Positions 9,405 to 48,146 of a stretch of 64,000 bases of DNA are shown here, piece by piece. Positions within the stretch are counted from its first letter, which is position 1. Every line of letters starts with the position of its first letter. The position numbers were made by a program, and so were the translations under genes. The notes below the pieces were generated by a model. The model was given only the letters and a program-made list of their open reading frames with translations. It was not told the origin of the DNA and did not search any database. This DNA is from Amoebophrya sp. A120 (taxonomy: Eukaryota > Protista > Dinoflagellata): the NCBI GenBank assembly GCA_905178155.1, contig CAJINV010000005.1:3106833-3170832 (forward strand). The letters are read 5' to 3'.

Positions 9405-12400
9405 ATGAGAACCGTACGCCGAGAAGTTTCTGCAAGAACCGCGGGTGCCGTGCCCGGTACGCACTCGCGTTTTTGCAGACCCACGTTTCTTGTGCTTGCT
9501 CTTCATCTACACCTGGATTTCTTCTTTGATCCCAGCAGCCAGGCGCTGGTTCGCGCTATCCAGGCTGGTGTCGCCGAGAAAGGCGCAGCGAGTTCGCGTG
9601 CGGTCAAGACTGACGAAAGAACTGCAGATCTTCATGCTGGCGGGTCCACTACTTTTTCCCAGCAGGGTGGAGACAATTTGCACGACATCAACTATTCGCA
9701 CGGCTACAGTGAGACGGCCGGTGGGGAGGGGACACTAACGAGTGGCGGCGGCGACTCATTACAGCAGAGAAGGGTCTTGCAGCTCCACAACGACGGTGAC
9801 TCCGAGGCGTATTCTCCGGAGGAAGCCAATGATCATGATCATGCACAGGCATCATTGCCTGGAAAAGCATAGACGCAACGGCCTTCTTCCTTCGCCAAGC
9901 TCGAGGACCAGGACAAGTACTATGAAGCATTCGAACAAGCAGCTGCACCAGCTGCACGGCAACAGCCGCAAAGCGAACCAGCCCAATCAACACAGCAAGA
10001 AAAATCGACCGCTGCTTCTCAGGATCATGTTCATCAGGATCAACATGCGGAAAACGAACAACAATCGCACGGAAATTTAGTTCCTGTGGACAGCTACAGC
10101 AACAGCGCCACGAGCTTGGAGGCCCGGGTGGAGCGGGCGGAAGCGGAAATGGCGCGGATGAGACAGCAGATGCTGGAAATGGAGGAGACCAAACGGGAGC
10201 TCGCAGCTCTGAAGAACGCTTTTGGAGAGGAAACCTCGTTTGTGCGGAAAGCGCTCGCGCGCGTTCGCTGGTGCGGGGCCATCACCGTCAGCTTGATCCG
10301 CTTTCTGCTCGAGTCGTTCATTTGCTACGAACGGGTAGACACGGTGTTTGGGTTTTACCTGCTGCTCTTCGCGTACGTGTCGATGGTCAGCGGGACGTTG
10401 ATGCCCGTCAAGATGATTTTCTTCCCGCACAAAATTCTCCTGAAGATTTCCCCCCAGGGGCTGGCGCAGAAGGTGCACGCGAAGCTTTCTCCCTTGGGTG
10501 GGCGTTTTGCCGCCACGACCGGCAGCTCCTCCTCGGGGGACCATCCTGGCGGGGACAGCACATCAGAGCAGAAGCAGGAGGGCGAGGACGCTGGCGACGA
10601 GAGGACTGGTGGTAGTCTTGCAACCATGGAGGTCGGGAGGGCAACTGCTCCTGTGAATGTTAAAGCAGAGGACGAACAGCGACAGTTGCCGGAAGAAACC
10701 GGGGCCGACGCCGAAGACCTGGACAAGCCTTCAACGAGAACAGAAGGGGAGGATCAGGCCCAAGCACAAGCCCCGGAGTACGAGGAAGGCAGAATGTTTC
10801 CGCGCGGTTTCCTGGCGGCGGGCACGCTGTCCTGCGTGTGCCAAGATAGCGACAGTGCGGAGGGGAAGCTGTTCACCCTATTCCTGGTGCTGTACATGAT
10901 GGCCACCTTGGTAAGCCAGTACCCTTTTCATGCTATCCCAACAGAGAAAACGCTAGCCTGTGCTTGTAATGCAAAAGTGAATTTTTTTTTTTTTTTAGAA
11001 TTTAAATTTAAATATAAGGCAAACAAGGCCTGTCGTGCATAGCCGAAACAGCGTGGTGTCCTATGGGCCTGCCCATGACAAGTTTTTTGTTCTTGCATTG
11101 GCTCTGCTAGCTCTTTTCTCTCCGTGTGATACACCCTTACCGCTCGTTCTGCCTCTGGCGAACGGAAGAAATGGCCAGTGACCGGGGCGATCTGGCGTCG
11201 CCGCGCATGAGTTCGGATTTCGAGATCGCTTTGCGCGCCGTTTGGCTGGTGGTACCCACCTACTTCTTCGTCGTAACGGCCGTGATACAAACACACAACC
11301 CGGATACAGACGAAGTCGAGAGCAGCACCGCGGCCCGCTCGGCGGCTGTATCGCGGATCGCCGCGGCGGAGGACGGCGAGGCGGCTGAGGACACGCCCCG
11401 GACGCGCACGCGAAAGCTCCGTGCGGCGACGCGGGAGAACCGCAGAGCCCAGGTGTTTTACCTCGTGCACTGGGCCGCCGCCACCACCGCCAGCCTCACC
11501 CTCCTCGTGTTCGAGATGGTGCAGCTCTTTTGGGGCGAGCAGGTTCCCCTATCGTACCTGACCGCGGTGTTCGACACCGATGCGGTGGACCTTTTCGACC
11601 AGCTGGCCACGCTATGCATTGCAAAAATGTCTGGGTCTGGAAGGTTGCAACTTGTCATGCTGTTTTTGAACTGTAAAAAAGTTTGTATTGCATGACCAGC
11701 AAGAGGGGTACAGTTTTTGCTACACGGACAGGGCATTTCTCATGCGGAAGGTGCATCAGGAAGCCCTCTAAAAGTCTGCGATGCTAGGTTAAGCATTACA
11801 GGCATCATGGGTCATGAGAAGTATGCATGACAAATCTTGCATTCTTCCAGGCCCAGGCATTTTTGCAGTTGATACACGCGGGAGGGCTACCTGTGGCACC
11901 TGGGGTGTCTGGACTATGCGCAGACCCCGCGGCCGTGGGAGCGGCATATCAAATGTAAAAATGTCTGGGTCTGGAAGAATGCAACTTGTCATGCTGCATT
12001 TGGATTCCAGAAAAATCTGTATTGCATGAGTACCAAAAGGAATGTGATTTTTGCTACGCGGAGAGGGCATTTGTCATGCGGAATAGGCATCAAGAAGCTC
12101 TGAAAAAATCTGTCATGCCAGGGCATGCATCACAGACATCAGGGCTCATGCAAAACGTGCATGACAAGTGTCAGAATGTTCCAGACCCAGACATTTTTAC
12201 AGTTGATACGGCATACCTGGCTCCGACTCCTCGGCATCTGCCTGGCCCTTTGCTGCGCGATTTCGTTCCTCACCATGCGGGCCATCCTGAAGAAAGTGCT
12301 CCCGCCCATGCAGGATTCCTCACTGGTGCAGCTACCCTCGTCCACCTCCCGGACCACCCGAGGCCACGTATCAAAAATGCAAATATCGATCTGGGTTTGG

Positions 12401-15172
12401 AAGAAACTCTTGTGATACAACTAAAATCATCGACATTAAGATGAGAGCACATCTAAGTGCAGCCGAGCATGACCGGTTTTATTTGAGACCCTCCGTCATG
12501 ACATCAGTTGTGCGCACTACTTTCACTTTCTGCATGTACGACATCAAATGAGGCCTTTAGTCTCGTCCCAACGTGGCATCACATCAATGAAGCTGCGCTC
12601 TCGATTAATCGGTCATGCAAAAATGTTACAGATTTATTGCCCGGACCCGAATGGGCCACACATGCAATACACGTTGACCTTTTCGTCCAGGCCCAGATCA
12701 ATAGCTGCAATGGATAAGGAGGACCGCACGACGACGTCTTGTGGGCGAACACAGTGACTAGGATTAGCGTCGCGCGATGTTCGTTTCTCTCGGAAGTGCT
12801 CCTGTGCTACCTCCTCTTCGCCTTGCCGCTGATTGCCTCGCACCACATGGTATCAATTGCAAATGTGTCTAGGTTAATATCCGGATGAGTGCAGACGTTT
12901 GTCATGCGCATTTTTTCGCATGACGCAACACGCATCACAGATTTGTTGAGGGCCTCTTGATAGTACCTGTTCCGCATGAGAGATGCCCTCTCCGCGTGCC
13001 ACGAAATGGACTTCCGCTCCTCTGGCTGCTCATGCGAAAATGCCGACGTTTTCCTTTTCCTTTTGAATTTGAGAATAAATATGAAGGCAGCTGCATCACA
13101 AGTCTTGCTATCGTTCAGCCCCGGACGAGGACGTCTTTGCAATGCATACATGGTCACCCGCCACGCCCTTTCGCTGGATGACCACATGAATGCGGAGCAG
13201 CTCGCGGAAATGGTGCTCATTCGCGGTGTATCAAATGCAAAAATGTCTGGGTCTGGGAGGAAGAGGATAGAACTTTTGATGCGTGCTGTGGGTCACACAA
13301 CAATCTGTGTTGCGTGATCACCAAAAGCTGTCCTTTTTTGACCAACATGCGCGGGAGTTTCTCATGCAGGATTGGCATGATAGAGATTTCGCAGAATCTG
13401 TCATGCTAGGTCCTGCATTCCAGACCTCATGGGTCATGGAAAGGCAGCATGACAAATCTCGCAATCTCCCAGACCCAGACATTTTTACATTTGGTACGGT
13501 GTGGTGGAGCGCTACGAGCGACTTCTGCCCCCAGAGGACCTCTACACGGAAGACTTGCACAAAGTTCGGTTTTATGCATTGCAAATATGTCTGGATCTGG
13601 AGGAGTGGTGCAAGTAGAGAGAAGTGTGCTCCTGAACTCCCAAGAACATAAGTACTTCCCAACTCATCTGTCATGCGTGTTGCGGAAAAATATTCAGTTG
13701 GCGCTAGTTGAAGCGCAGCTTCTGATGCGCCTTACGCACCACAGGATCGTTCAGGTCTGATCTGCGGTGCTTGGCTGCGTGCTGACATTGGAGCTGGCAT
13801 GACAACTATTATTGGATCCAGACATATTGGCACTCGATAGGCGCCAGTCGTTCTGGGACTTTGTGTCGTACCCGGAATTTTCCGAACTCCACGAAGTCAT
13901 GGGGCGCAAGAAAGGCGAATTGGACACCCTCGCGGATAAACTGCTCATGAACCCCGCCAACCAGCTATCCTGCGCGGGAACGTGCCCACCTTCATCCCAT
14001 AGTCCAGACGCGACTCGTTCCAGACAAAAAATTGATTCAGACATTTTGCATGCAAATATGCACGACAGCTCTCTGTTGGTGGGTACGGTTTTGAGCAGCA
14101 TACCCGCGCGCCTCACACCTGTCAAAGGTTCTGGCGGACCGGAAGAAGTTCGGCGGGATGGTCCGACACATGAACACGCCATATGATGTATCATACAGAA
14201 AAAATCTAGCTGGTGCTTAGCACTACACATGTGATGCATAGAATGAATTCCTTTTTTCGCAGAAGGATCTCGCCACGGGGTAAGTAGTTCACCCATAGCA
14301 TGCTGCTTGAGACTTCTTGCAAGAGCGCTTTTTTTGCGGATCTATTTTTGCACTATGCAAGCTTTTTTCTGTGTGATAGGATGAGTGGATCGCACAAACA
14401 CGGCATATATCAAATGTAAAAATGTCTGGGTCTGGAAGATTCTGAGATTTGTCATGCAGTTTTTCCAAGCTCCGCCAAGTCTCGAATGCAGGGCCTAGCA
14501 TCACAGGTTCTGCAGCCCCTCGGTGATGCCTATTCTGCATGAGAAATGCCCCCTCGGCATGGCTAGAAATGGGGACCTTTTGCAAGTCATGCAACACAGA
14601 TTTTTGTATGATCCGCAACACGCATCACAAGTTCGCATCCTTCCAGACCCAGACATTTTTACATTTGATAGCATATGACTCGTGACTTCGCGGAACTCGC
14701 AGCGGTGCTGCGCGAAATGTTGGAGCAGAGGGACAGCTATCAAATGCAAATATGTCTGGGTCTGGAACGTTGCAGGACTTGTCATGCAAGTTTTCCATGA
14801 CCCATGAGGTCTGGAATGCGAGACCCAGCATCACAGATTCTTTGAGGTCTCTACCATGCCTTTCCTGCATGAGAAACTTCCTCTCAACTTGGTCAAAAGC
14901 GGACAGCTTTTGGCACTCACGCAACACAGATTTTTGCATCATTCAGATTTAGCATGACAAGTTGCAGTGTTCCAGACCCAGACATATTTGCATCTGATAA
15001 CAGCAAAAAAGAAAAAGCAGGATCCTATGGAGCCGCGGCGGCATATTTCCGCAACCACGTGGGGCCGAAACCACAAGCGCTTGACCACAAGCACATCAAG
15101 AATGGGAGGCAGGAGGACTTCGCGCTTGCCTTCGAAGAGGAGGACTTCGGGCCCGCTCTATCAGATCGATAG
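9405..15172 (+). CDS. Multi-exon multi-pass membrane protein of unknown function, interrupted by 11 TIR introns
   Basis: Removing each element plus 5 nt gives a continuous frame from 10086 to the stop at 15170-15172 (e.g. LFDQLAT-REGYLWHLGC...WERH-TWLRLLGIC...SHHM-VTRHALS...QRDS-KKEKAG...LSDR*). The 5' part (9405-9869) is in the same frame but separated by a TAG at 9870-9872. Confidence 0.75.
10934..11131. mobile_element. Introner/MITE intron, TIR subfamily B
   Basis: Left TATCCCAACAGAGAAAACGCTAGC vs right revcomp TATCACACGGAGAGAAAAGAGCTAGC; flanks CATGC/CACCC; removal restores frame. Confidence 0.75.
11613..11874. mobile_element. Introner/MITE intron, family A (262 bp)
   Basis: TIR TATGCATTGCAAAAATGTCTGGGTCTGGAAG...CTTCCAGGCCCAGGCATTTTTGCAGTTGATA; perfect TSD CACGC. 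Confidence 0.9.
11947..12208. mobile_element. Introner/MITE intron, family A (262 bp)
   Basis: TIR TATCAAATGTAAAAATGTCTGGGTCTGGAA; perfect TSD CGGCA. Confidence 0.9.
12369..12716. mobile_element. Introner/MITE intron, diverged family A
   Basis: Left TATCAAAAATGCAAATATCGATCTGGG vs right revcomp TATCCATTGCAGCTATTGATCTGGG; flanks CCACG/AGGAG are diverged; frame restored by element+5. Confidence 0.7.
12851..13148. mobile_element. Introner/MITE intron, family A
   Basis: TATCAATTGCAAATGTGTC...GACGTCTTTGCAATGCATA; perfect TSD CATGG. Confidence 0.85.
13229..13496. mobile_element. Introner/MITE intron, family A
   Basis: TIR TATCAAATGCAAAAATGTCTGGGTCTGGGAG; perfect TSD CGGTG. Confidence 0.9.
13573..13839. 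mobile_element. Introner/MITE intron, family A
   Basis: TATGCATTGCAAATATGTCTGGATC...GATCCAGACATATTGGCACTCGATA; flanks GGTTT/GGCGC. Confidence 0.8.
13966..14102. mobile_element. Short introner/MITE intron with a distinct TIR
   Basis: Left TATCCTGCGCGGGAACGTGCCCACC vs right revcomp TATGCTGCTCAAAACCGTACCCACC; flanks CCAGC/CCCGC. Confidence 0.75.
14189..14378. mobile_element. Introner/MITE intron, subfamily B
   Basis: TATCATACAGAAAAAA...TTTTTTCTGTGTGATA; flanks TGATG/GGATG. Confidence 0.8.
14408..14670. mobile_element. Introner/MITE intron, family A (reverse orientation)
   Basis: TIR TATCAAATGTAAAAATGTCTGGGTCTGGAA matches at both ends; perfect TSD GCATA. Confidence 0.9.
14738..14999. mobile_element. 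Introner/MITE intron, family A (reverse orientation, 262 bp)
   Basis: TIR TATCAAATGCAAATATGTCTGGGTCTGGAAC; perfect TSD ACAGC. Confidence 0.9.
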
Positions 15173-17001
15173 AGCGGGCGAAGCTGGTACAGGATTTGTA
15201 CTTTTGGTACTAAAAGGAAAATGTAGTAGGGCGGGAAAGTAGACATAAGGATTTTTTATCCACCAGCACATGGCCCAGAAATGATAATGCAGTTGTAATA
15301 GGAGCGAGAAGGAGAACGAGAAGTTGAACTTGAAGTACAACTTCAACTACCTCTACCTCAATCAGCTGCAGCTGTGGATAAAGAGCGAAGAAACTACCCT
15401 ACTTTGACGTGGTCAACAACACAGAAGTGTTTCTTCGGCAGTTGAGACAACCATAGCCAATTCACGGGCGTTTACGCTTAAGGAGAAATTTTAATTTTTG
15501 TCTTTTGAAGAAATAACTTCTGTATCGATAGGTAGCTGAATCGTGGATCAGCAAGCAACATATGAAATAGAGGACACGAAGAACGCAAAAAAGTAGATTT
15601 AAATGTTATGAACTTTGTTGGGCTTTTTTTTCAAAATTTGAGGAACTTATTTATTTATCGCAATAAAAAATCGAAATCGTGAACGACAACGAAATGGAAG
15701 TCGGTTTTTGATGTTGAGCCAGCTAGCTGTGAAAAAATATACACGACAACTACTCGGACTTGTTCATCTTCTTGCGATGAACATCATCAGTGAACTCCGA
15801 TCTTCGAGGTGTGAGCGAAGTAGAAAAATCTGTTTCGTTGGACAAGAATCAGTCATCGGTCAATATTCCACCCTACGAAGACACCGGTGGAATAAAGAAA
15901 CAGTCGGTCCAGAGCAGAAAAATTCGCGAGTACAAGTGCGTCGGCCGTACTGTTGATAGCGAACAGAGAACATACCGAATCGGAAGAAATGCTGCTACAC
16001 ATTATACAAGTGTGAAGATCCAAAAATTATTGAAGAACAAGAAACCCACAATTAATGGCGCATCGAGTAGTAAAAAGTGATCTGTTATTTTCTAGCTACG
16101 GAGCTGCATTTTTGTGCCAATTATGTTTTTGTGTTTTGCGATGGCCCAGATGATCCCCTTTTCGAAACATTGACACTTGCCACACGCACGACAGGTCCAC
16201 TGTGCTCATTTGTGATTCTTTATTTCCCTTTTTACTGAAGATCCGCCGATCGAACTTTTGTTTCTGCCAATGAATTAAGTAACGTAGACGCTGCAAATAT
16301 AGTAGAAGCAACAATCACGAGGACGAGAAGAACGAATCCCGTGAGACGTAGCGCATAGTCGTGTACTACTAGTAAAAGCGAGTCCAATTATACGTGTTTG
16401 TACTTGTCGGTTACAAGAAGGAACAAACCACAAACACGACGACCCCACTGCGGCACTAGAACTTTTCCTCTTTGTCGTTGAACCGCTGGTTGATGCTGTC
16501 CACCTACTAGAAGTGGCTTTACGTCGACCACAGAGGCAGTAAAATATTCGTCCCGCGGCATCCATCTTCGGTCCTGCTAAAGCACAAAGCACTGTGAAAA
16601 CGGTCACGCCGGTTCGGACAAGGTCATCTTCCTGCAAGCGGACCGCTCGCAACGCACGCGGGAAGAACAGGAGCAGGCTCTTTTTCGAGGAAGAAGAGAG
16701 GCGTTAAGTTTTGAATTTGCCGTCGGAGCAGTTGCAGCACGTTCGAACTAGGGCGACAGTCATCTGACGGAGAAATTACAAAGGCTGACCAAAAAAATAA
16801 TTGAAGTTGGAGCTCCACGCAGGAAGAATTTTTCCACAACCACCCTGCCACGACCCACGGAGATAAACCGTCGCGACAGGAGGAGCATAGGAGCAGAAGA
16901 ACCCACGGAATATAAACACATCGCGAACTAGAGGAACTACACACGACCTTGTTGGACTCCTTCCGCTTCACTTGTAGTACCAAAATACTAGATCGCCCAG
17001 C

Positions 17002-18668
17002 ATGGAGATCGTGATCTACCTTCTCGGCAACTGGTGTTGCATAGGGGCGGCCTCCATCATCATATACAACTTCATCATCCGCAGGGGGCACTGCAAGGAC
17101 AGCGAACGCGACCTGCAGATATCAAAAGACATGCAGCTCATGCTCTTTCTCGGGACCTTCGTCCGCTTCTACTGGTCCATGAGCCCACCACCAATCTGGT
17201 ACAGAAGATTTTTTGCTTCCGACGTTTATAATTCTTCAAATTACACTCCTGTAATGTACTCATGACACCAGAGCAGCTCGTGTGTGATTGTGCGGCAGCA
17301 GTGTCATTGCTGTCAGTCTGTAATACCTCAACAGTATCACAACACGCAGTTCATTCTAGAAGAGTCGGTGCTGCAATCTAGATGTACTGGATGCTCTTCA
17401 TTTCGCCCTCCACCGCTGATAGAGAAATACATTGCACTTCGAATATAAACTGATCTTGTTCTGCTCAGCAACAAATAAATTGGAGTGGTTTGTTTCCGAA
17501 AATACAGAGTGGTTTGTGCTTGAGTCGATTGCTTGAATTATCACAGGTCTGAGGAGCCGGTACCAATTCAATGGGTGTCAATTTTCGACCTGATTTTTTC
17601 CATTCTGATGTGGGGCCTCTGCGTGTGCTGCTCAACAGACTACGGCGTGCAGTTTATGAATTCCATGGGCGGAGTTGGCCGTGGCGGATACAACGCAGTC
17701 CCGGGACAGGCGGAGTTTGGTATTCATTGCGACTTTATCTTCCTCTCGCTCTCGACAACTTACTACGCAGATCTAGTAGCTACCATACGAACTTTTCTCG
17801 ATATGACGGAAGAGACCCGAGATTTCTTTCAGTTTTCCGGGAAGAAGTTTTCAACAAAAGTTTTTCTTTGTGTAGCCTCATGCGCTATCTATCGATCTAT
17901 TAGTAGAGGACGGCGACCGCTTGTTCCAAATCCAAAAGCATCCATTTTTTCATCGCTAACAAATCGTACGACAACAGACGGCCTGGTGCAAGACGACTCA
18001 ACTGGTTATGCGGGCGGCTCGGGCGGCGTAGGAGGTTTCGGGTCGGGCAAACCGCAAAACCAGTCGGCCCTCTACCGGTACACGCGATGGCCCTTCCTGA
18101 CCGGCGGCGCCGCGGTCACCGCTTGGCTGCTCACCCACCTGCTCCCCAGTCTGCACATGCCGGGCGCCTGGATACTAGTCGACTTCGCGGTGGTCTTCAA
18201 CATGCTCCTGGACGGCTGCGCCATGGTGCCGCAGGTGATACTCATCCACTCCAGCAGGACAAAAACTCCGGTGGAGGCCAGCCACTTCGTCGGCCTGCTC
18301 TGCCTCGGTATGGTTCAATGTTGATAGGATACGGAGCATGTGCGTTTTTGTTCTATATTATCTGCTCAACAGGAGCAGATGCCTTTGCTTGCATCACCAC
18401 CGGACTAAGTATTACGTTGCATCAAGAACTAGTACATCGAAGCATGAAGAAAGCCATCTCTTTCATTCATCACGCAGGCCGCCTACTCCGAATGATCTTC
18501 TGGCTCTGGTTGGTGCTGCACCCGGATTCCGGGCACGCAATATGGACGTTCGTCGTGCCAGATCTGCTCCACACGGTGATTATGGCAGATTACCTGTACC
18601 ACTACCTGCAGAAGCTGAAAAGGGACAGGATCGACCCCTACTTCGTCGATTATATGACTCACGTATAA
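17002..18668 (+). CDS. ER lumen protein-retaining receptor (ERD2/KDEL receptor)-like, paralog 1
   Basis: ISKDMQLMLF..RFYWS, LDGCAMVPQV, SHFVGLLCLG-RLLRMIFW, DLLHTVIMADYLYHY; GT-AG introns at 17199-17546 and 18308-18477, probably another near 17710-17977. Confidence 0.75.
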
Positions 18669-20486
18669 AAAACACACGCGATCGCGGCAGCTGCGGAATA
18701 AACATGTACGAAAGGGAAGTAAGTTGTGAGTCAAAACATTACAGATGAACACCTAACGAAAGGCGGCAAGCCCACAACTTTCAAATTTTGTACGTCGTTG
18801 GTCCTCCATTTGGGTTCACGACAAATGAATCGCTCTGTTGATTCTTCTTTTATTGTTTTATCGAAGATTACATCAAAACTAATGATAGTGTGGCGAAGTT
18901 TTTCCTGCTTCGCTTCACTTGTCCTTTTTCTTTTACAACAGGTTTGTTATACGCGTTTGTAAAAATGAATTCTTCCGCACATCACTCTATAGTGCTTCGC
19001 AGACCGGCACTGCATGACGAGCATGGGAATCGAATACTTAAATCTCTGCTGCAAACGCCCTTTGCAGCAAAGGGGGTCCAATATTCAATCCCTGGCTCTA
19101 CTTTTCCGCGCCAGCACTGGCCGACAACGGAGAATTCCAGTCAACGACGTGTGACATCTGTCGCCGAAGTTAAATTTTAAGCTACAAGGACACGGGGTAT
19201 CTTGAGATAGGAATCCAGAAAAGCGGATACTAGCCATAGATATCATCCTTTTCTGGTTCACTTCTGATAGAGCCTTGTTACAACTCATTACTAAACCCGG
19301 TGTAAGTTTTACCCTACGCAGCTCACTCGAAGACAAAGACGGCAGTTGTCTGTTCAAAGTAACAGACAGGTGAGCACGACGGAAAGTTTACTTTTACCAC
19401 CAGCTTATCCCCAGATAAAGAACGCACAACCTGTCGCCTCCTCTTTCTATTTTTCCAAAAAGAGTTCCGGACCGCACGAGCCTGCGACGCCGGGTCGTGT
19501 TTTGTCCTGCCTTTTTCTTGCGGTTTGCGTGGTTTAGTCCTACTCTTAAGGGGGGACGCGGAAATGTAGAGAATGAATCTTACGTACCTTGAATAAGATG
19601 GCTTGTCGCTACACAGATTCTAAGTAAGTACTTACTTGCTCCCCGGAACAACATGTTACACACTTTAGACTCACTTGCTCCCCGGAACATGAACATACTA
19701 CACCAGGAAATCTGCCATCCCTATTTGAGCTCCTTATCCACTTGTCCTGACAGCACCCGCGAGTAGCGTTTTCTCTGCGGTGCTCTGTTTGGGCAGGGAA
19801 GACGCAGTCGAAAAAAATTATGGTTGGAGAAAAAACAATTATACCGGGGGGCGACAGAAGACCGTGCAAGTAAAGCAAATTTCGGGCCGTACTAGAGCAA
19901 GTTCACACGACGACGACCAACAACATGCGGAAAGAGAGACGGATTTGAGGAGCGACATGCCTTGACGGCCATACACATATTCGAATCTTGAATTATCCAG
20001 CGACGCTATAGTTTTCAAACACCACCACACCCACTACCTCAACAGCGACAAAAGACCAGAAGGCGTCTGTGCTCCGTCTGTCTTCAGTTGTGAAAGAACT
20101 TGAAGAACTTCGTTAGTTGTAAAAGTACAGATGAACATCACCTGAAGAGCCTGAAGCCAGGCTGGGTACCCGATTGGGTTCGGTAATTTTTTTAGACTGT
20201 CGCCCCAGGCACCGCATCCATGCGTGTTCACCCTCACGTAGTTCCGTGCGTTGAAGAAACGAAGAAGCGCGCAAGTTATTTTTTCTTCGGTAGCTGCCGA
20301 CTGGTACTGATCATCGAAACACATAGAGAGATCACCAAACTTGATCATTACTTCGCGCGCAGCACATCTACACTCGAGATCCTTTCAACACCACACTCTG
20401 TTCGTGAGTGAGATGTAGTGTGAATTGTGGGCCAGAAGCAAGTTGGCAGAGTAGATCCAAAACTAACGAAAAGCCATACGATAATC

Positions 20487-21971
20487 ATGAGTATTCCGAA
20501 CCAGTGCAACAGTATCCCAGGCGGGTCCCGTCGTGGTCCTTGCGTTATTTTCGGAAACGGCCTCGGTTGCGACGTCGCGGATGCGGTGCCGTTTTTGGAA
20601 CAGCTGCGGGCGAGATTTCCCCACGTGGACGTCCTTACGCCCGCGGCGCCCGTTGTCCCCTGTAGAATGTGCGACTTCGAGGAGACCGCTTGCTGGTTTG
20701 ATCTGCCGAGCATGGAAGAGTGGGAAAGCCTCTCGACGCGGGAGCAGCTGGAGTTGCCTGCGCGCGATATCGGCGACAACTGCGATCGGTACTACCTAAG
20801 GACTACGCACGGGGGCAGGTGCAGCCAAGAGCCGCCGGCGGGCGGCGAGAGGCTGCGCGCTGGCCACGGGGCCCGCGAGGATCAGTGTGCCACCTCGTCA
20901 AGCGGCTGCGGGGGTCAGAGCGGCAGAGACTCGGTTATTAGCGGGGACCGCAACCTCCAGCTGCACGTCGGAAAGGAGCAAGACCCTGCCACCTGCAAGA
21001 AGATCGGACGGGATGAAGCTATACTGGATGGAACAGACGCGAAACTCGTGCGCCAAATTCTGCATGATGTTGACGACAGCTCTTGGGGTGTTATGGAAGT
21101 GCACCCGCCTGTTGTTGGGAAACACGAAACAGACAGAGATGTTGGAGAGCGGGTCGCGCCCTCTCTTGCATCACAGAAGAAAGAGAGCCCGTCCCCATCA
21201 AGTCCGCCGCGGCCGGTGTCACTCCTGTCACCCCCCTCGCCAGCATTGCATCTCCCCGCACCCCCGCCGGGTGATTGGGGTAGCGCCGTATTTGCCGGCT
21301 TTTCGCAGGGTGCAAGCATGGCCCTTTTCGCGGGTTTGCGCGGACTGATTCGGGACGTGAAGCGGCGGCAGGAGGAGAGCGGACGCGGAGAGGACGCGCC
21401 CCCCAGTGAAATAGTAGGCGATGGCAATGGCGGCGCCGCGGAAGTCAGCAAGCACCGGGCGAAGCGGGTAAAGAAGAGCCACCCGGCAGGAACAAGCAAG
21501 GAAACATCGCCTGCGCCTTCTAGTGCTGCACGGGGCTCGGATTCTGCGGGGCTGTCACGCGGGAAGTCTTCGACGAGTCCGCTTCGCCAGCGACGAGAAG
21601 CGCCCGCCGGCATTCTGGCGCTGTCCACGTATGTGCCGGCCGCGCGCGCGCTGCAGGCCGCCGCAGAGGCGGCGGGGGTGAAAAAGCAGAAAGGCAGCCC
21701 GCCGCCAAATGGCCCGCTGCCGATTCTTCTGTGCCACGGCACGGCAGACGGAGTTCTCGATCCGAAGCTGGCCGAGGAGACCAGGGCCTGGCTGCTGGAG
21801 GTGTTCGGCGCGCGGCATGTACGTGTGGAGCTCCACATCATTGAGGGCGGCGGCCACGCCTTTGGCTACAACGAGGGGGAGATAGTTGGTTCCTGGCTGC
21901 AGAAAGTTTTTCCCTTTTCGCCTCCTGGGACTCTGGTGGAAGACGAGCGAGGCGCGCGCGTGACCAAGTAG
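20487..21971 (+). CDS. Alpha/beta hydrolase, phospholipase/carboxylesterase (acyl-protein thioesterase-like)
   Basis: GFSQG nucleophile motif, WFDL, ALSTY, CHGTADGVL and GGGH; first ATG of the ORF is at 20487. Confidence 0.8.
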   Translation: MSIPNQCNSIPGGSRRGPCVIFGNGLGCDVADAVPFLEQLRARFPHVDVLTPAAPVVPCRMCDFEETACWFDLPSMEEWESLSTREQLELPARDIGDNCDRYYLRTTHGGRCSQEPPAGGERLRAGHGAREDQCATSSSGCGGQSGRDSVISGDRNLQLHVGKEQDPATCKKIGRDEAILDGTDAKLVRQILHDVDDSSWGVMEVHPPVVGKHETDRDVGERVAPSLASQKKESPSPSSPPRPVSLLSPPSPALHLPAPPPGDWGSAVFAGFSQGASMALFAGLRGLIRDVKRRQEESGRGEDAPPSEIVGDGNGGAAEVSKHRAKRVKKSHPAGTSKETSPAPSSAARGSDSAGLSRGKSSTSPLRQRREAPAGILALSTYVPAARALQAAAEAAGVKKQKGSPPPNGPLPILLCHGTADGVLDPKLAEETRAWLLEVFGARHVRVELHIIEGGGHAFGYNEGEIVGSWLQKVFPFSPPGTLVEDERGARVTK

Positions 21972-23650
21972 AACGTTGTTGCTGCTGTGTTCCGGTAGTA
22001 GAACTTACGACAGTACCTACCGATGCTTCGCCGACAGCCGTGGCCAAGCAAAAGCGTTCGCACGCGTCGGTCTAGTATGAAAGCCCCTGTTCCACCACAC
22101 ACCTCGATCGCAACTACACCAGACAATCACACGACGTGACGAACAAGATCCCCATCGACATTACTCCTGAATTACAATGAAAATAAGCAAAGCCTGTCCC
22201 AGAATGTGGACGGAGAACAGCGCCCACTCGGAATCGCGTCGCGTTCCGCCCTGAAGACGGATCCTTTTCTTTTCAGGGTTGCAAAGTTCTTTCCAAGAAA
22301 AGGCACCCTGGTTGATGTTCTCAATGTGAAGTTTTGGCAGTTCGACGGTCCCCCGGAAGATCCGCGTTGTGCCAGTCTGGCATTACGACCGGACTGCTGT
22401 TTTTGAAAGAGCTACTGTATTAAGCTAATCGACGTGTTTGCCAATTTTGGGCCACTTGGTTATCGAAGTTATCGAGTCAATTGCTGTTTTTTTTTGTTGA
22501 CAGAAGGCACGAGGGGATGATGACAGCGTAATTTTTGACATCTATTTGTCAAGAGGATCACTGTCCCTTAAGATAAAAGACCGCGAGTACAACCTCGAGA
22601 AAAATTCGAACACTTTCATACAAGGAAGGGCAGTCTACCAAGATAGAACCCCACGCCTTTCCATTTCGTTGCTCGTTGTGCTCCTTCGTCGTTCGGGCCT
22701 GCTACTTGCGCTCCGCTGACTTACTTTGGTCGTCCGGGCGTGAAGATTTGCTGACGAGTGACAAAGCTCCGGTGGCCAGGGGGGTTTGGATGACCACGCA
22801 CCGGTGAAGAAGCAGGAACGCAGTAAGTCCGGAGGCAAGTAGTGGTCAGCGGGGAAGGACATCGGGCCCCGGCTGATCAAAGCGTCCTACGTGAAAATAA
22901 ACGCTCGCGGATTGCTTGCAAGTAGTTTTACGAAGATCATCGAGAAACTACGATACAAGGCACGAAATACCAACGGTTTTGGAATAAAAGTAAAGGTAAC
23001 TTCGAGCTGCTCTCCCTACTGCTCTTGGGCTACTTTCATCGTTTGCGAAACAGGTAAACGCCGCCCAGCGACTACTTCACACACTCCTCGGTCAAGGTGA
23101 CATTAGCAAGGCAGAGAGGGTTCGGGCAAATAGAAGAAGCAGAAGAAACAAGCGGCTACACGATTCCACGCAGAGCCGCCTAGACAATTGGTCGCAACAG
23201 GGCCTAGTAATACTTCATAGGGGTGACCGTCTTGACGATTTTGGTGCACAAAATCACGATGAAGCTGTACTTCCTGCGGACCACGCCCACGTCCGGCGAA
23301 GAATAACGAGGTCCACCAACTTCTTGTAGGGAAGGCGAACAAGTAAGTAGCTCGTGCTCGTCCGGTGGTTTAGTACTATCCTCGGGGGGAGACCATCAAT
23401 CGCAACAGCGGCAGACGCAGAACGAAGAAGTTTGCAGGGACCGAGAATAAGAACCACGACGGCACTCTCGGTCCGCTTGCTGCAAGGAGCAGCAGGAAAG
23501 CAAGGAAGTGGATTTCCGAAAGGCTGCTTGGGAAGTAGTGATACCAGCACGTAGTCTTGTACAAGGGGTACTACAACGTCTTTCCTCGTCGCATCAACAG
23601 CACCTGGAAAAAATTGACCGGTTTCCAAAGCCGTAAAAGAAACCATCAAG

Positions 23651-26058
23651 ATGGAAATCCTAATTTACCTGCTCGGCAACCTGTGTTGCATTGCAGCAGC
23701 GGGGTTGCTGGCGAAGCAGCTGCTGACCAGCAATGTAAATACCGAGACGAGCCTGCACATCTCCAAAGACCTGCATATGGCGTGCTCAGCTGGAACAATC
23801 TCAACATAGAGGAATCTGTGATGCAAAGAAAACGCGGATGATCGACCTCGTCTCCTGTCTGCTCAGCATGACAAACAACTTGTGACTGCTGTAAACTGAA
23901 CCAGAGCTGAACCAGAGTTGTCCATGATTAAGAAGAATTGCCGGGCTTCAAATAAGCTGCAGTAAGTACTAGTCTTCGGCACTCCGCAATTTTTGCGTGG
24001 ATAAAAAATACCATGTGAAGATCTCTATTCACATCGTTCTTCCAGTTCAGATCGTTCCAGCTGAGTACGCCATAGTGCAGTACATGCTTTTCTTCGGCTC
24101 CGTATTCCGACTCTATTGGAGCTTGTCACCGCCGGAGATCTGGTAAAAGTTTTGAAATAGGAATAGCAAAAGAAATGTAGAAGTATATTAGTACTCGATC
24201 TCGAATTCTAATAAGTACCAGAGCCAGGCAGAGCATATCTTGAATCACTTTGCACGTGATTAACCCTCACACTCAAGGTCAGAAGAGGCCACAATAGTGC
24301 AGTATCTGTGCTTCGCTGACCTGGCCGGTACCGTCTTACTCTGGGGCCTGTGCGCCGTGCTTTCAACCAAGTTCGGGAAAAACCTCTACTGGGAACTCAC
24401 CGGCGTCCGGTCACAAGACAGCAAAGCGAAAGGTAGGTGAAATAATTTCGATGAGTTTAGCCACGAAAGTGAAAGAATACCGCTCTTCACGTTGCTTGGA
24501 TATCATATTCGCAATGTGAAGATTTGGAACTTTTTCTCAGCTTCGGCACGACTTCGCGTGTATGAAAACAATGGATATAAAAACACCACAGCGAAGAAAC
24601 CAGCGGAAGGTTTTACTGCTCTCTTGACCTGGTATCGTAGAGAGAATAACTAGAATGTCGCATCTTTGTAGTTGCAAAATTCAATGACAATCAATGAAGT
24701 AAGAACTACTTGAAGAACTACAACATTTTGAGAAATTGTGTCATGGGAAAGCCCATGGCATGCATGTTAAGACCAGACGAATCTTTTCGCGTGTTCATTT
24801 CCACGGGACAAAGCCGACATACTAGCTTTTTTCTATGTGATACCTAGCCAATACTTTCGGTAGCCGCTGGCGTTCTGGCGTGGTTAGCAACGCATGTCCT
24901 GCCGAGCTTAAGTGGACCAACAGCTTGGCCCTTCGTGGATTGGGCAGTACGTTATGAAATGTTTGTTTCAATATGCTTTTTCTTGGAAAACATATGTGAA
25001 TGAGCAAGTTTGTTGTTTGCTTGATACTTAGACTTACCAAAAATTCTGTCCAGGTTGTGTGGAACATGCTTATCGACGGAATGGCAATGATATCCAACGA
25101 AGATCGTTTGGATTCGTGTAATTGGAAATAAATCTGTATACACAGAGACCAAGAAGTTGCTCTTGCACCACTTCGTCTCATGCCGGATATCGATATTCTG
25201 CATGACAGGCTTCGTGCTTCGGGCAGCACAAAGATTGTTGTTTTTGTACAGAGGGAGGACGCTTCATTGACTTTGACTCCTTTTTGTTTTGTTGGATAAC
25301 TGCTGCCACAAATTCTGACTCTGTCCGCGTCAGAGGAAAAAACACCAAGAATAACATCGCACTTCGTTGGCTTGCTGTGCGTAGGTACTTTATTTTACAA
25401 GAAGTGCTATACTTGAACATGATGATGATAGTGGTTCGGAATTGCCTGGAAATTATCCTGACATGTTGATTCGTAAGTCATGCGAACTTCCCTTATGTAC
25501 GGAAGAACAGCTTGGATCGATTATGTCGGTCAAAAACTACAAATCAAAAAGGTCGCGTCTTGCGCATGATTTTTTGGATCTGGTTATCCACTGGGAAACA
25601 TCAGGCGGAGCAAGATTGAGTAACATATTTCGGGGTCACGTCACGTTGCTCCATTAAGTTCGGCGGGGCGAAGATCTGTCATGTTTTTGTCGAAACGCGA
25701 CGCCGACGCCGGGCCGTGAGTTCGGCGGAGCCAATCTGTCATTCAGATTTCTATGCGATTGCAAATCTAACAAATCCGTTGAGTCGACGAGTACTTTCGT
25801 TTCATCGACTTTGGCAGGCTGTCGAGGAGGTCATCTGAACGCAACTAAACATGATACTCACTTCTGCTTCCTTGCCTGTTTTCCATTCGATCCCATTTGG
25901 TGTTCCACCCAGAAGCCGGACACGCCATGTGGACTTTCATCCTGCCGGACCTGATGCACAGCGTGGTGATGGCGGACTTTTTGTACCACTACGTCCAGAA
26001 GGTAAAACGCGACGCGAAAGAAATGCTCAACTTCGGTTACGACTACGCGCACGCGTAA
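23651..26058 (+). CDS. ERD2/KDEL receptor-like, paralog 2 (highly fragmented by introns; missed by the ORF track)
   Basis: Exons align with paralog 1: MEILIYLLGNLCCI, ISKDLQYMLFFGSVFRLYWSLSPPEIW, LAWLATHVLPSL, NMLIDGMAM-LPQI, TSHFVGLLCVG-RVLRMIFWIW-LVFHPEAGHAMWTFILPDLMHSVVMADFLYHY. Confidence 0.8.
23776..24074. mobile_element. Introner/MITE intron, distinct TIR
   Basis: Left TATGGCGTGCTCAGCTGGAACAATCT vs right revcomp TATGGCGTACTCAGCTGGAACGATCT; flanks CTGCA/GTGCA. Confidence 0.9.
24633..24842. mobile_element. Introner/MITE intron, subfamily B-like
   Basis: TATCGTAGAGAGAATAACTAGAATGTCG...CGACATACTAGCTTTTTTCTATGTGATA; flanks CCTGG/CCTAG. Confidence 0.8.
25091..25298. mobile_element. Introner/MITE intron (diverged)
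   Basis: TATCCAAC...GTTGGATA; flanks AATGA/ACTGC; join AM-LPQ matches paralog AMVPQ. Confidence 0.7.
25585..25892. mobile_element. Introner/MITE intron (diverged)
   Basis: TATCCACTGGGAAACATCAGGC...GCCTGTTTTCCATTCGATC; flanks CTGGT/CCATT; join IW-LVFHP matches paralog. Confidence 0.65.
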
Positions 26059-27087
26059 GCCAGTGCAATAGAATGTGGGTGGATTGTCAAAATGACAAGA
26101 GTACTTACTTTCTTCACTTGTTCGTACTTGTTTCTCATGCGTGAAATAAGGCTAGGCCGCCGGTCTAGCCTGTTTCACAGGGAAGGCAAGTGACGCGGCT
26201 AAAGATTGCAGGCTTGTTCATTCCCATGGACGAGGCTGCTTAAAACATTGGCAGGAGTGTCTGTCTTTGCCCCAAACCGCAGGCGAACTCGACTTTGCTT
26301 ATCATGGGTAAAGTTTGCCACGCGTCGCGTGCATTTGCCGCGCCGCCAGGCTGGCGTCGTGTTTATGCGAGACAAACTGCTAATGTCCATTTTGTCGATT
26401 CCCCACCTCGCATTCGTTCCCATAACGCAGTATAAGGAGCAGGCTGACCGTCTAGTAAAACAAAAACTACCACGAGGCAGAGTCCGGATTTCCGCTTTTT
26501 CACAGAAGACGACACGACCCGGCTCCTCCTGAACCGTCTTGGAAGATGATAAAACACTACTACCTCGCGCGCACCTTAACCAGCAGACCGGCTGTTCTTG
26601 TCCTGTTCAATTTTTGCGGATTAATGTCACGAAATATCAAATATTTTTCCACAATTCCTTGCTTTTCCGCGACGCTCTGTGCCCTGTACTCCAGGCAGAG
26701 TTGGCTTCTCTTCTTTCGATGACGACAGGAGAACAAATTGTACAAAGAAAAGAAAAACTAGGACGCTTCCGATTGGAATCGTCCCTTGGTTGAAGCAATG
26801 GCCTTGGACGCAAGTATACAAACTACAAGAAACACATTCGATGCTTTTGATACACATCATTCAAAAACTCCGATAGAATCGATTTTCAAAGTTGAAAAGG
26901 TCTGGCGAAACTAAAATGATCAACTTATAAGCAGGACGACAATAAAGGAGCAGTAGCAGTACGAAGACGCTCACTTACCTTGCGAAAAAAACGCAGAAGA
27001 ATTTGTTTATTGTGCATTAGACTAGTTGCCGCAATCAGCCATGTTCCTGTCTTGTTCATACAGTACGCTTAAGAAGGCACAGATTGT

Positions 27088-31400: not shown

Positions 31401-32904
31401 CGAGCAGGCTGAGCTCGCATATCCAGGAGAAAAGATTGCTCAGCATAGGTATCTATCAGGTTTGCGAAGATGCAAAAATGGATAGGACAACATGAGATTC
31501 ATAGCGTCATGGGCCGCTCCTGCCCGTGATAAATGTTGTTTGTGTATTTGTTATTGCATGCCCTGTGCTGTTTTTTCCTCTGCGATACCGCAAGGCACGG
31601 GGTTCTGGACGTGATTGGCGTGGGCGTGCCGCCCGTGAAAATCGAAAAGGACGCGAAGACCGGCTTCCTGTACCCGCGCACCGGCACGGGGTTGCCGTTG
31701 TCCTCCTCTCCTTCATCTTCGAACTCCACCTACGGCACCAGCAGGGGCGCAATCGGTACTACTAGTAGTGCTTCTCCCAGCAGCACAACAAGAACGACCG
31801 CCGGCCCCCCACCAGGCCCGCCCTTTTCGCAACTGCCGTCGGTGCCGCCAAATGACATGGACATCGAGTTTGCCATATCAAATGCAAATATGTCTGGGTC
31901 TGGAAACTTGTAATGCTGCGTTGGGAGTAGTGAATGCTCTGCAATGCACAGCCAAGCATGAGAAATACAAATATCTGCGCTTCTTTGAGTTGCGTTTTTC
32001 GCATGACAAACTGCGTCTTTGCATGACAGGCAAAGGCGTCTCTTCTTGGACACGCATCGCAAACTTTTTGGTCATGCCAGACAAGCATGACAAATCTTGC
32101 AGTCTTCCAGGCCCAGACATTTTTGCATTTGATATGCCACCGACACCCCGGACCCGTACGCAACCGAGGAGGAAACGCTGCGCGCGCACGACGACCCCTT
32201 CGGGCTGGAGGCGAAGTACTGGCACCCGCTGGACCCGTTTCACCTGCGCAAATCGCAGGAGGTCGAGCGGGAGCTGGTGGCCCGGGCGCGGTACGAGCAG
32301 GAAAGACAGACCCTGAACCAGGGCACGCCGGAGCCGGGTACCACCAGCCCCGACCGGGATTTTGCCGCCGGCAAGGACGGCAGCGAGGGCATCTCCGGGT
32401 CCACCCCACCCGCGGAACCCGACATGGCGGAGGCGCTCATGGGGAACATTTCCAACGAGAATCCGTCCACGGCCGAGTTGCAGAGTTCCGAACCGTATCA
32501 AATGCAAAAATGTCTGGGTCTGGAAACTTGTAATGCTAAAAGTGAATGAGAATGATAGACGCGCCGCAAGACGCAGCTATGCATGACAAATTTTGTGGCT
32601 GCCATGTCTTACGTATTCCGCATGGCAAGCTGCCTTTTCGCATGACACTCAGGAGGGCTCTTTCGTGCCTATGCAACACAGATTCTCGAGTCATGCCAGA
32701 CAAGCATGACAAACTTGCATTATTCCAGACCCAGACACTTTTGCACTTGATAAGCCGCAAGCGGAAAGTGGGCCGCGCGAGGAGGACGTCCCCCAGCCGT
32801 TCTCGCGCACCACACCACTGATAACCGCACCGGCCGGCCCGCAGTCCAAGCCCGGGGTGGTCATGCCGGACATCTTTCGCTCGAATCCGGCCGACATGTT
32901 CTAA
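28467..32904 (+). CDS. Multi-exon hypothetical protein; frame reconstructed from 29871 to 32904, upstream exons unresolved
   Basis: Joins DFELY-KRQQFDEAYRT-PTLRPEEY...AELA-RHGVLD...IEFA-TDTPDPY...SSEP-QAESG...NPADMF*; linkage to the 28467 ORF is assumed. Confidence 0.6.
30047..30335. mobile_element. Introner/MITE intron, diverged family A
   Basis: TATGCATCACAAA...TTTGCGATGCATA; flanks CTGTA/CTCTA. Confidence 0.8.
30375..30625. mobile_element. Introner/MITE intron, distinct TIR
   Basis: Left TACGAGAGTGCACAGCCCTC..CTCATTTG vs right revcomp TATCAGCGTGCGCCACGCCCTC..CTCATTTG; perfect TSD GGACC. Confidence 0.75.
31420..31587. mobile_element. Introner/MITE intron, subfamily B-like
   Basis: TATCCAGGAGAAAA...TTTTTTCCTCTGCGATA; flanks TCGCA/CCGCA. 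Confidence 0.75.
31876..32134. mobile_element. Introner/MITE intron, family A
   Basis: TIR TATCAAATGCAAATATGTCTGGGTCTGGAA; perfect TSD TGCCA. Confidence 0.9.
32496..32752. mobile_element. Introner/MITE intron, family A
   Basis: TIR TATCAAATGCAAAAATGTCTGGGTCTGGAA; flanks AACCG/AGCCG. Confidence 0.9.
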
Positions 32905-46900: not shown

Positions 46901-48146
46901 TCAAGAGCAACTACTACCTCAACGCGGCCGCCCAGCTTGCGGGCATCACAAAATTCCCCGTCGACGCCACCCCGGCGCAAACCGTGTGGGGCACCGCGAT
47001 TCACGGCAAGACCGGCTCGTGGTCGATGGACAGCGGAACCCCGGAGATCTACGACCACATCTACCGAGTCCCGCAGTACCTATCAAATTTTGCAACATTG
47101 GCGTGGTGGTACTGTATGATGAAAGTACATCAAGAAAAATTAAGCTTTTTACATCGCCTCTACAATGCCGGTCGTCTTCACGAAGCTGTGTACGAGACGA
47201 GATGTAGTTGGGAAAAGAAAGGGACGCATAATATCACATCCCAACAATATGTTTTTTTTGCATGGTCATACCTTCAACCTCTACGTCTACCGCCACGCCA
47301 CATATTTGAAATCGATACCCTTTACCCGGCTTCCCCCCTGCTATGCTGGAAAAGGCGATCCCGAAGGCGATGAAAATCATGGCCGGCGAGCTGGAGTACG
47401 GCTACGTCGGCAAATATGGGAGTGTCAGGATCGAAATCGTCAAAGTTGAAATAATCTGTAATGCAAAAAAGCGATACCAGCTGGAGCCCAGTTTGCAAGT
47501 GGCGCATGACAAATTTTGGCAGCATGGAGATCCAATTTACCATGCTGTTTGAGCAGAGAAGACTGCTTTTGTCATGTTATTCTAACAGCTCTATCTCACA
47601 CCCCAAACAGGCTTATAATCGGCCTGAGTTGCCTGCTCTGCAAGACAGGCACTTTGCGTCTAGCATTTTATGCATCACAAACTATTTCAACTTTGACGAT
47701 TTCAATCCTGACGCTTCCATAGCAAAGACGACACCTACATTTGCGACTCCCGCGACAACCCGAGCCAGTGCGCCTTGATCGGTGGGGACCTGTGGAAATG
47801 CCTCAAACACTACGACGCCAAGAAGTGCCACTTTTGCGAGAACGCGGGTGACTCGCTGCGGTGCGAGGTAAGGGGATGGAACTCGCACGGGGAGTTCTGG
47901 GAGCGCGTGCCCATCTACCCCCGGGACGTGCTGGGCGAGATGTTCCGCGACGAGTGGCGCGACTTCTACGCCCGACCGCTCATGACGCAGGTGGACATTC
48001 CGAAGTCGATCACGCGGAACGTGACTAACTTCAAAACTCTGCCCTGGTACATGGTGCAGGACGCCGCGCCGGAATACGACCTAAAGTCCCGCATGTACCT
48101 GTTTCCCTTCGCCGAGGCCACGCCGACGAAGGTGCTGATGCGATAA
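43990..48146 (+). CDS. Hypothetical protein with a ~350-aa Lys/Ala-rich basic region and a Cys-containing globular C-terminal part
   Basis: 731-codon ORF continued via 46175-46417, a GT-AG intron 46563-46707, 47081-47317 and 47415-47721 (joins VASK-TGVTRIFE, MCAQ-VPKKL, YVGK-DDTYIC). Confidence 0.7.
46175..46417. mobile_element. Degenerate introner intron
   Basis: AATGTTGTTGAAATT vs AATTTCAGCAACATT inverted; perfect TSD CAAAA; right terminus eroded (GTGACG). Confidence 0.65.
47081..47317. mobile_element. Degenerate introner intron
   Basis: TATCAAATTTTGCAACATTGGCGTGG...CCACGCCACATATTTGAAATCGATA; TSD not clear; frame restored. Confidence 0.6.
47415..47721. mobile_element. Introner/MITE intron with a long (~55 bp) distinct TIR
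   Basis: Left TATGGGAGTGTCAGGATCGAAATCGTCAAAGTTGAAATA vs right revcomp TATGGAAGCGTCAGGATTGAAATCGTCAAAGTTGAAATA; perfect TSD GCAAA. Confidence 0.9.

Follow-up and report, generated by a model that had tools for sequence, protein, structure and literature searches.

The closest described system is that of the introners of Amoebophrya sp. A120, in which more than 60% of introns are non-canonical, 29,850 introners were reported and no U1 small nuclear RNA (snRNA) was detectable (PMC7789003; what is said of this and of the other cited papers refers to the parts of them that were available). According to the same study, introners contain an inverted repeat of 8-20 nucleotides (nt) between their ends and direct repeats of 3-5 nt at their borders, and they are strain-specific, the inverted repeats starting with TAT in strain A120 and with TTA in strain A25; position-conserved introns have canonical sites in 98.6% of cases. 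No transposase for the A120 introners was found there (PMC7789003), and open frames resembling those of transposable elements are reported for some A120 introner families (PMC12130899). Strain AT5 uses canonical introns (PMC12005148, PMC11453091). Here we describe a 64,000-nt stretch of the A120 genome (the window), which carries two paralogous genes of an ERD2-like subfamily, the second of which (paralog 2) possesses five non-canonical introns. It is highly probable that four inserts with hairpin ends and a decayed fifth are non-autonomous DNA transposons, namely Amoebophrya introners, whose insertion followed an old gene duplication and which are likely spliced out at one fixed position.

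The transcript evidence consists of contigs of runs X1 and X2, both from one sample, in which three introns of paralog 1 and nine of paralog 2 are skipped. Four of the ten listed runs were examined, and none of the listed runs that contain the stretch is recorded as RNA. The "RNA" label of X1 and X2 is a guess, backed by the 12 skipped introns and a loose end of eight A at position 20138. The raw-read RNA runs X8 and X9 gave two reads and none on the stretch, too few for a test, and contig depth, which was 150 and 115 in paralog 2 versus 30 and 45 in paralog 1, says little about expression. The five non-canonical introns, with their terminal inverted repeats (TIRs) and target duplications, are as follows.

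23775..24078, forward strand: introner intron i1, 304 nt; element 23776-24074, TAT...ATA, TIR 13/14, duplication CTGCA/GTGCA
24632..24846, forward strand: introner intron i4, 215 nt; element 24633-24842, TIR 10/14, duplication CCTGG/CCTAG
25090..25302, forward strand: introner intron i6, 213 nt; element 25091-25298, TIR 10/14, duplication AATGA/ACTGC
25584..25896, forward strand: introner intron i8, 313 nt; element 25585-25892, TIR 10/14, right end decayed, duplication CTGGT/CCATT
26055..26428, forward strand: introner-derived intron i9, 374 nt; GT..GC at the common register, TIR decayed (6/14), duplication ACGCG/ACGCA

All five are skipped in the contigs, and no equivalent cut of any of them gives GT-AG ends. 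Terminal pairing over 14 nt was significant for i1, i4, i6 and i8 (shuffle p < 0.001 each), and a scan of offsets without assumed ends recovered the same pairing register for these four. Each intron exceeds its element by 5 nt, where the element ends are independent of the contig joint for i1, i4, i6 and i8 but not for i9; element plus exactly 5 nt is thus skipped every time, and the majority transcript regains the length of the empty site. Predicted end-pairing amounts to 11-24 base pairs in the five elements versus 0-10 in the seven GT-AG introns of the gene pair. As for the features described for introners, non-GT-AG skipping and a direct repeat were found in all five, an inverted repeat in i1, i4, i6 and i8 but not in i9, and a TAT start in four, i9 starting with TAA and ending with ATA. 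Nevertheless, i9 aligns end to end, reversed, with the intact element 47415-47721 at a score of 152 (200 shuffles: mean 41, maximum 70), which makes i9 an old representative of this kind of element. The in-frame TAA of i9 is such that retention would shorten the protein by one residue only, and i9 may be nearly neutral for the protein.

The first-pass annotation had placed TIR introns at 23776, 24633, 25091 and 25585, and these starts are correct, with significant TIRs and with all four skipped in the contigs. Its four intron gains also hold as gains, on the anatomy, an outgroup locus, the tree and the spliced contigs, but their number does not, as i9 had been missed: five gains in paralog 2, not four, are well supported. 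Likewise, its gene layout ended paralog 2 at 26058 by taking the TAA of i9 as the stop, and it overlooked the GT-AG introns 24433-24591, 24947-25053 and 17720-17977. A model with four non-canonical introns and a stop at 26058 was rejected by the contig joint 26050/26425; the true stop ends at 26435, and the protein then ends in V like its aligned relatives. The resulting gene models, in which the borders of the five non-canonical introns are set at the common register discussed below, are given here.

17002..18668, forward strand: paralog 1 coding sequence, ERD2/KDEL-receptor-like (PF00810), 296 amino acids; from contig joints, splicing, identity to P0001 and Pfam
17002-17198, 17547-17719, 17978-18307 and 18478-18668, forward strand: exons of paralog 1, from contig joints
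17199..17546, forward strand: GT-AG intron of paralog 1 at IW/S, common to paralog 2 and the outgroup locus L001 (ancestral); from joints and alignment
17720..17977, forward strand: GT-AG intron of paralog 1, phase 1, in the variable loop, not in L001; from joints and alignment
18308..18477, forward strand: GT-AG intron of paralog 1 at G/R, common to paralog 2, not in L001; from joints and alignment
23651..26435, forward strand: paralog 2 coding sequence, 265 amino acids, 10 exons; from joints, splicing, identity to P0133 and Pfam
23651-23774, 24079-24142, 24278-24432, 24592-24631 and 24847-24946, forward strand: exons 1-5 of paralog 2, from joints
25054-25089, 25303-25384, 25552-25583, 25897-26054 and 26429-26435, forward strand: exons 6-10 of paralog 2, from joints
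24143..24277, forward strand: GT-AG intron of paralog 2 at IW/S (ancestral); from joints and alignment
24433..24591, forward strand: GT-AG intron of paralog 2, phase 1, in the variable loop; from joints and alignment
24947..25053, forward strand: GT-AG intron of paralog 2 at WA/V, in L001 at the same column and phase, not in paralog 1; from joints and alignment
25385..25551, forward strand: GT-AG intron of paralog 2 at G/R, common to paralog 1; from joints and alignment

Splicing at the contig joints yields open frames of 296 and 265 amino acids, which are identical at 139 of 262 aligned residues (53%). The product of paralog 1 equals protein P0001 letter for letter (296 amino acids, 100% identical) and that of paralog 2 equals P0133 letter for letter (265 amino acids), both with the source name Amoebophrya sp. 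A120; this agreement is not independent, since the annotation may rest on the same transcript data. P0001 was retrieved with the last exon of paralog 1 and P0133 with the last large exon of paralog 2, and the latter search returned paralog 2's own protein alone (one match of two candidates), which is weak evidence on orthologs.

The two paralogs share GT-AG introns at IW/S and G/R, as previously noted, at matching alignment columns and phases (83.2 and 261.1) and with contig joints at each, and the two loop introns (17720-17977 and 24433-24591) are both in phase 1, within unalignable sequence. Joints and alignment also bear out that paralog 1 is contiguous at KDMQ, RWPF, AMVPQ and WLWLVL, i.e., at the sites of i1, i4, i6 and i8. 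The empty site can therefore be seen within the window, as had been claimed, but at the codon level only, because synonymous sites between the paralogs are saturated (proportion of synonymous differences, pS, 0.77; nonsynonymous, pN, 0.37); synonymous divergence, which a ratio of nonsynonymous to synonymous rates requires, was saturated for both pairs that involve paralog 2.

An outgroup is provided by L001, a single locus from the 141 candidate stretches of a second metagenome scan, which carries a complete homolog, gene a (266 amino acids, 4668-6195), and the start of a tandem gene b (7487-7707). Gene a has two introns only, both GT-AG, at IW/S and FA/V (5460-5883), the latter at the same column and phase as intron 24947-25053 of paralog 2; the IW/S intron is thus common to both paralogs and L001, and the G/R intron is missing in L001. 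Gene a is contiguous at the sites of i1, i4, i6 and i8, and gene b at that of i1, which speaks against ancestral introns; the site of i9 does not align between paralog 2 and L001, so that the empty-site comparison covers four sites. Gene b is cut by the contig end, and neither L001 copy shows a TIR intron. The sites of the TIR introns are thus unoccupied in two lineages, paralog 1 and L001, and gain is the best reading.

In trees of 18 and 23 rows, picked from 17 and 118 search matches, paralog 2 grouped with the A25 protein P0004 (support 100/98), the AT5.2 protein P0002 was the partner of paralog 1 (100/99), and an arrangement holding the two paralogs and the AT5.2 protein together was rejected by the approximately unbiased test (p-AU 0.017), a group that had been named after the first tree was seen. 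On these sequences, the duplication would likely predate the split of A25 and A120. P0002 is 83% identical to paralog 1 and the A25 protein 51%. Here AT5.2 is far closer to A120 than A25 is, yet AT5 is reported to be canonical and A25 and A120 non-canonical, which would reflect either independent invasions or an artefact of the AT5 annotation. The gene numbers of P0001 and P0004 lie 20 and 10 identifiers from FARSA orthologs in Table S3 of PMC7789003, a hint that the A25 gene is syntenic.

These observations also bear on two other histories. The five introns might be ancestral and have been lost from paralog 1, e.g., by recombination with reverse-transcribed mRNA, for which the missing WA/V intron of paralog 1, common to paralog 2 and L001, offers a precedent; that intron is likely ancestral, and its loss was likely a precise one. 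We consider this very unlikely, because L001 also lacks introns at the four alignable sites, the TIRs and 5-nt duplications are still readable despite saturated synonymous sites, paralog 1 retains the introns flanking these sites, and canonical introns are reported for AT5 and one other strain (PMC12005148), the AT5.2 ortholog being far closer to paralog 1 than paralog 2 is. Similarly, old canonical introns could have been overwritten or converted by introner sequence, leaving old positions with new sequence, as the GT starts of i4 and i9 at the common register might suggest; however, an element and exactly one 5-nt duplication account for the whole of each intron, no trace of an earlier intron is left, and neither paralog 1 nor L001 has an intron at these positions, so that conversion is hardly probable.

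Several points nonetheless weigh against the inserts being gained introners. Paralog 1 has lost at least one GT-AG intron, so losses do occur there and, taken without an outgroup, it is an imperfect proxy of the ancestral state. No genomic DNA of a paralog 2 ortholog was found in the metagenome scans (no relative among the 306 stretches of the first scan and one more distant locus among the 141 of the second), an absence that also leaves room for the ancestral introns just discussed. L001 itself is that more distant homolog, and its position in the tree is not settled. Both branches in the grouping of paralog 2 with the A25 protein are longish (0.64 and 0.60). The TIR of i9 (6/14) is no better than chance (shuffle p 0.11), and the offset scan did not recover its pairing register. 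Relatives of i1, i4 and i6 in the window are weak (scores of 90, 93 and 64 versus shuffle maxima of 81, 76 and 51), i8 has no relative among the listed elements of the window, and no transposase was identified for these elements in this analysis.

A further possibility is that paralog 2 is a decaying duplicate, in which inserts were tolerated since the gene no longer matters. Such a history would agree with five inserts versus none in paralog 1 and with the longer end branch (0.64), but it is barely conceivable in view of the spliced contigs, a frame intact over 10 exons and a pN of 0.37 against saturated synonymous sites. Moreover, of the 40 columns without variation among 11 other full-length rows, paralog 2 keeps all 40, compared with 91 of 223 elsewhere, and so it is not evolving neutrally; its transcript, expressed in spliced form in the X1 and X2 contigs, agrees. 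Accurate excision under selection, as first proposed, is accordingly upheld with regard to the conserved protein, but it is shown for the majority isoform only, as contigs drop rare variants. The imbalance of five inserts versus none looks non-random (p 0.001 for at least five, given a rate calculated from PMC7789003, and p 0.024 for the split) but was not counted as evidence, because the locus had been picked for this feature.

The position of the cut was defined as the number of bases of the upstream duplication copy that are kept in the transcript, since mismatched copies show the origin of each transcript base. The allowed cuts are 1-5 for i1, 4-5 for i4, 2-4 for i6, 4-5 for i8 and 0-4 for i9, and only cut 4 is common to all, also when i9 is left out. 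At this cut, a single base precedes TAT at the start of the intron and four bases follow ATA at its end, the intron ends being AT..GC, GT..TA, AT..TG, TT..AT and GT..GC (i1, i4, i6, i8 and i9, respectively). Under the common register, positions +2 and +3 are T and A, which matches seven of the seven GT-AG introns of the pair, all of which start with GTA. For i4 and i8, the Trp codon found in paralog 1 and L001 survives in the mRNA, and it is the intronic copy that has changed. According to Table S4 of PMC7789003, all nine predominant non-canonical motifs of A120 are NT-NN, i.e., with T second, and all nine of A25 are TT-NN; together with A25 repeats starting with TTA, the latter again give +2T/+3A.

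Taken together, these data suggest how such introns might arise and be removed. Judging from the TIR and duplication anatomy and the multi-copy family described below, a transposase acting in trans would insert a TAT...ATA element and duplicate 5 bp of the target. The two element ends would then pair in the pre-mRNA, as predicted by their complementarity, and cleavage one nucleotide ahead of TAT and four nucleotides past ATA would produce an intron that begins with N-T-A, like G-T-A introns, and ends without AG. The register points to possible spliceosomal recognition of N-T-A together with an acceptor defined by position; removal by the U2-type spliceosome is conceivable, the sole pointer to it being the +2T/+3A match with the GT-AG introns. 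Any insertion site would be tolerated, as the element would supply its own +2T/+3A and a position-defined 3' end, after which the intronic duplication copy would decay and the exonic copy stay under selection.

It is possible, however, that these are gained introners whose cut is not fixed, a tentative alternative of real weight that concerns the mechanism and not the gain: the hairpin would gather the ends, and each intron would be cut at its own position within the duplication (e.g., TA..AG in i4, TG..AG in i1), either by a relaxed spliceosome or through a structure-guided route that bypasses the spliceosome. AG-ending options are indeed available for i1 and i4, and the end-pairing, which exceeds that of the GT-AG introns, would suit such a route. 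Five introns would share some register by chance with p 0.18 (0.23 without i9), and p falls to 0.039 only if register 4 is named beforehand; the register was found before Table S4 was seen. In addition, the A120 motifs of Table S4 sum to about 20% of introns, with junction placement dependent on the mapper, and the text of PMC7789003 reports no clear signature, sites variable relative to the hairpin (Fig. 3 legend) and no U1 snRNA. What favors a fixed cut instead is that the single register fitting all five is the very one that gives the +2T/+3A of the GT-AG introns, that the 18 predominant motifs of Table S4 all have T second, and that i9, despite a TIR at chance level, continues to be skipped and has GTAAG as its first bases at that register. 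The last is one case, and it would fit a drift towards a canonical donor.

We put forward the fixed register as a hypothesis drawn from five introns of one gene and a published table. A wider conjecture, whose chances we regard as evenly balanced, is that A120 (and A25) splice tens of thousands of "signal-less" introns by one rule, in which the donor N-T-A is shared with canonical G-T-A and the acceptor lies 4 nt past the inverted repeat without AG. A spliceosome without U1 snRNA would have dropped the requirement for +1G and the 3' AG, and old elements such as i9 would drift to a canonical donor as the hairpin decays.

Elsewhere in the window, to which all copy numbers refer in place of a genome-wide count, TAT...ATA pairs with at least 11 of 14 complementary terminal bases occurred 37 times versus 9-14 times in five shuffles, and 10 of these 37 unfiltered pairs were abutted by an exact 5-nt duplication. 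Among 15 pre-filtered TAT...ATA pairs, no exact duplication of 3, 4 or 6-9 nt was found, and a target duplication of 4 nt was replaced by one of 5 nt on the window-wide pair scans. A permissive element scan was noisy (30 matches versus 6-16 in 10 shuffles), and strong elements alone were used. A family of eight elements of about 260 nt was recognized, which are 62-90% identical, lie in both orientations and mostly have exact 5-nt duplications.

11613-11874, 11947-12208, 14408-14670 and 14738-14999: first four members of the ~260-nt introner family, both orientations within the family
31876-32134, 32496-32752, 40907-41168 and 60964-61225: last four members of the ~260-nt introner family, both orientations within the family

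The duplication copies of paralog 2 match at 4, 4, 3, 2 and 4 of five positions (i1, i4, i6, i8 and i9) and are thus all imperfect, which suggests that its insertions are likely older than this family; the family, in turn, is likely the younger of the two. A ninth candidate at 13229-13496 ends with GTA. Seven strong elements cluster in 3.4 kb (11600-15000) and five more lie in paralog 2, and none was found in the 7 kb (16500-23500) containing paralog 1 and a hydrolase gene. For six elements at 11.6-15.0 kb, an open-frame look at splicing in both orientations gave no clear answer. Overlapping long inverted repeats (61295-61413, 13/14; 61306-61402) lie at 61280-61432, in or beside a candidate element.

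With regard to the protein family, PF00810 scored 33.2 bits for paralog 1 and 38.3 bits for paralog 2 against a cut-off of 25.6, and the best PDB sequence matches were KDELR2 (E 2e-5 to 2e-7). In a fold search, KDELR made up seven of the top eight hits, all with E > 0.07 and none < 0.001, from a weak model (predicted local distance difference test score, pLDDT, 56). The ligand and pH-sensor residues of the KDEL receptor are H12, E127, Y158 and R169 (PMC9220330); by alignment, E127 is replaced by D, Y158 by G and R169 by V/L, and H12 aligns with C in a stretch scored at -0.5 bits, which is unreliable. The paralogs thus resemble the KDEL receptor/ERD2 family in profile and structure matches and differ from it in a longer loop and the replaced ligand residues. 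They form an ERD2-like subfamily, in agreement with the first-pass label, for which neither the name "KDEL receptor" nor KDEL binding is established. Transcript contigs imply a 5' untranslated region of about 1.15 kb for paralog 2 (22502-23650) and a 3' untranslated region of about 1.5 kb for paralog 1 (18669-20138), the latter ending in the loose end of eight A. An unrelated gene lies between the paralogs; its frame looks intronless and is covered by low-depth contigs.

20424..21971, forward strand: unrelated open frame of the phospholipase/carboxylesterase family, 515 amino acids from stop to stop (PF02230, E 1.6e-10)

The process by which introners become introns has already been published for Amoebophrya sp. 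A120, and the five gains described here add to the approximately 30,000 counted. Such gains are ordinary for A120, but this locus offers a tidy example polarized by a paralog and an outgroup, and mismatches between target-duplication copies, which reveal the position of the cut, can be used as a method. Apparently new is the combination of TAT...ATA ends and a 5-nt duplication with one cut, N|TA, common to the five introns and proposed here as a hypothesis. This register rule was not found stated in the available parts of PMC7789003, PMC12130899, PMC11282704 and PMC9860276, nor in those of PMC12005148, PMC11453091, PMC12787238 and bioRxiv 10.1101/2022.06.08.495308; Figures 3 and S19-S25 of PMC7789003, Roy et al. 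2023 or subscription papers may show it. If true, any insertion of these transposons would become a clean intron, and if true genome-wide, the rule would make the splicing of non-canonical Amoebophrya introns without U1 snRNA testable and would correct gene prediction there.

Compared with the A120 introners of Farhat et al. 2021 (PMC7789003), the introns of paralog 2 are alike in organism, non-canonical ends, TAT repeats and strain-specific positions, and also in dimensions, with direct repeats of 5 bp (Fig. S19 legend) and non-canonical introns of 240 nt on average there, and 5-nt duplications and lengths of 210-370 nt here. In that study, the relation of border to hairpin is given as "variable" or "unknown" and gain is said to be indistinguishable from loss, whereas here the paralog and the outgroup gene together polarize the five cases, all of which agree with a single register, N|TA...ATA-NNNN|. 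The introners of Micromonas, Aureococcus, Symbiodinium and others (PMC9860276, PMC11282704), with their TIRs and target-site duplications, likewise resemble miniature inverted-repeat transposable elements; their removal with one duplication copy restores the mRNA, and their borders come from the element or the duplication. The examples described in these papers carry or co-opt recognizable splice sites, unlike the introns here, which have no GT-AG register and a free 3' dinucleotide (GC, TA, TG, AT, GC). Finally, the transposon-derived introns of Fritillaria borealis and the nonconventional introns of euglenids (PMC11282704) share TIRs, duplications, non-GT-AG ends and lineage-specific positions with those of paralog 2, but the ends in Fritillaria are mostly AG-AC/AT, and the euglenid introns represent a separate class with pyrimidine|purine borders.

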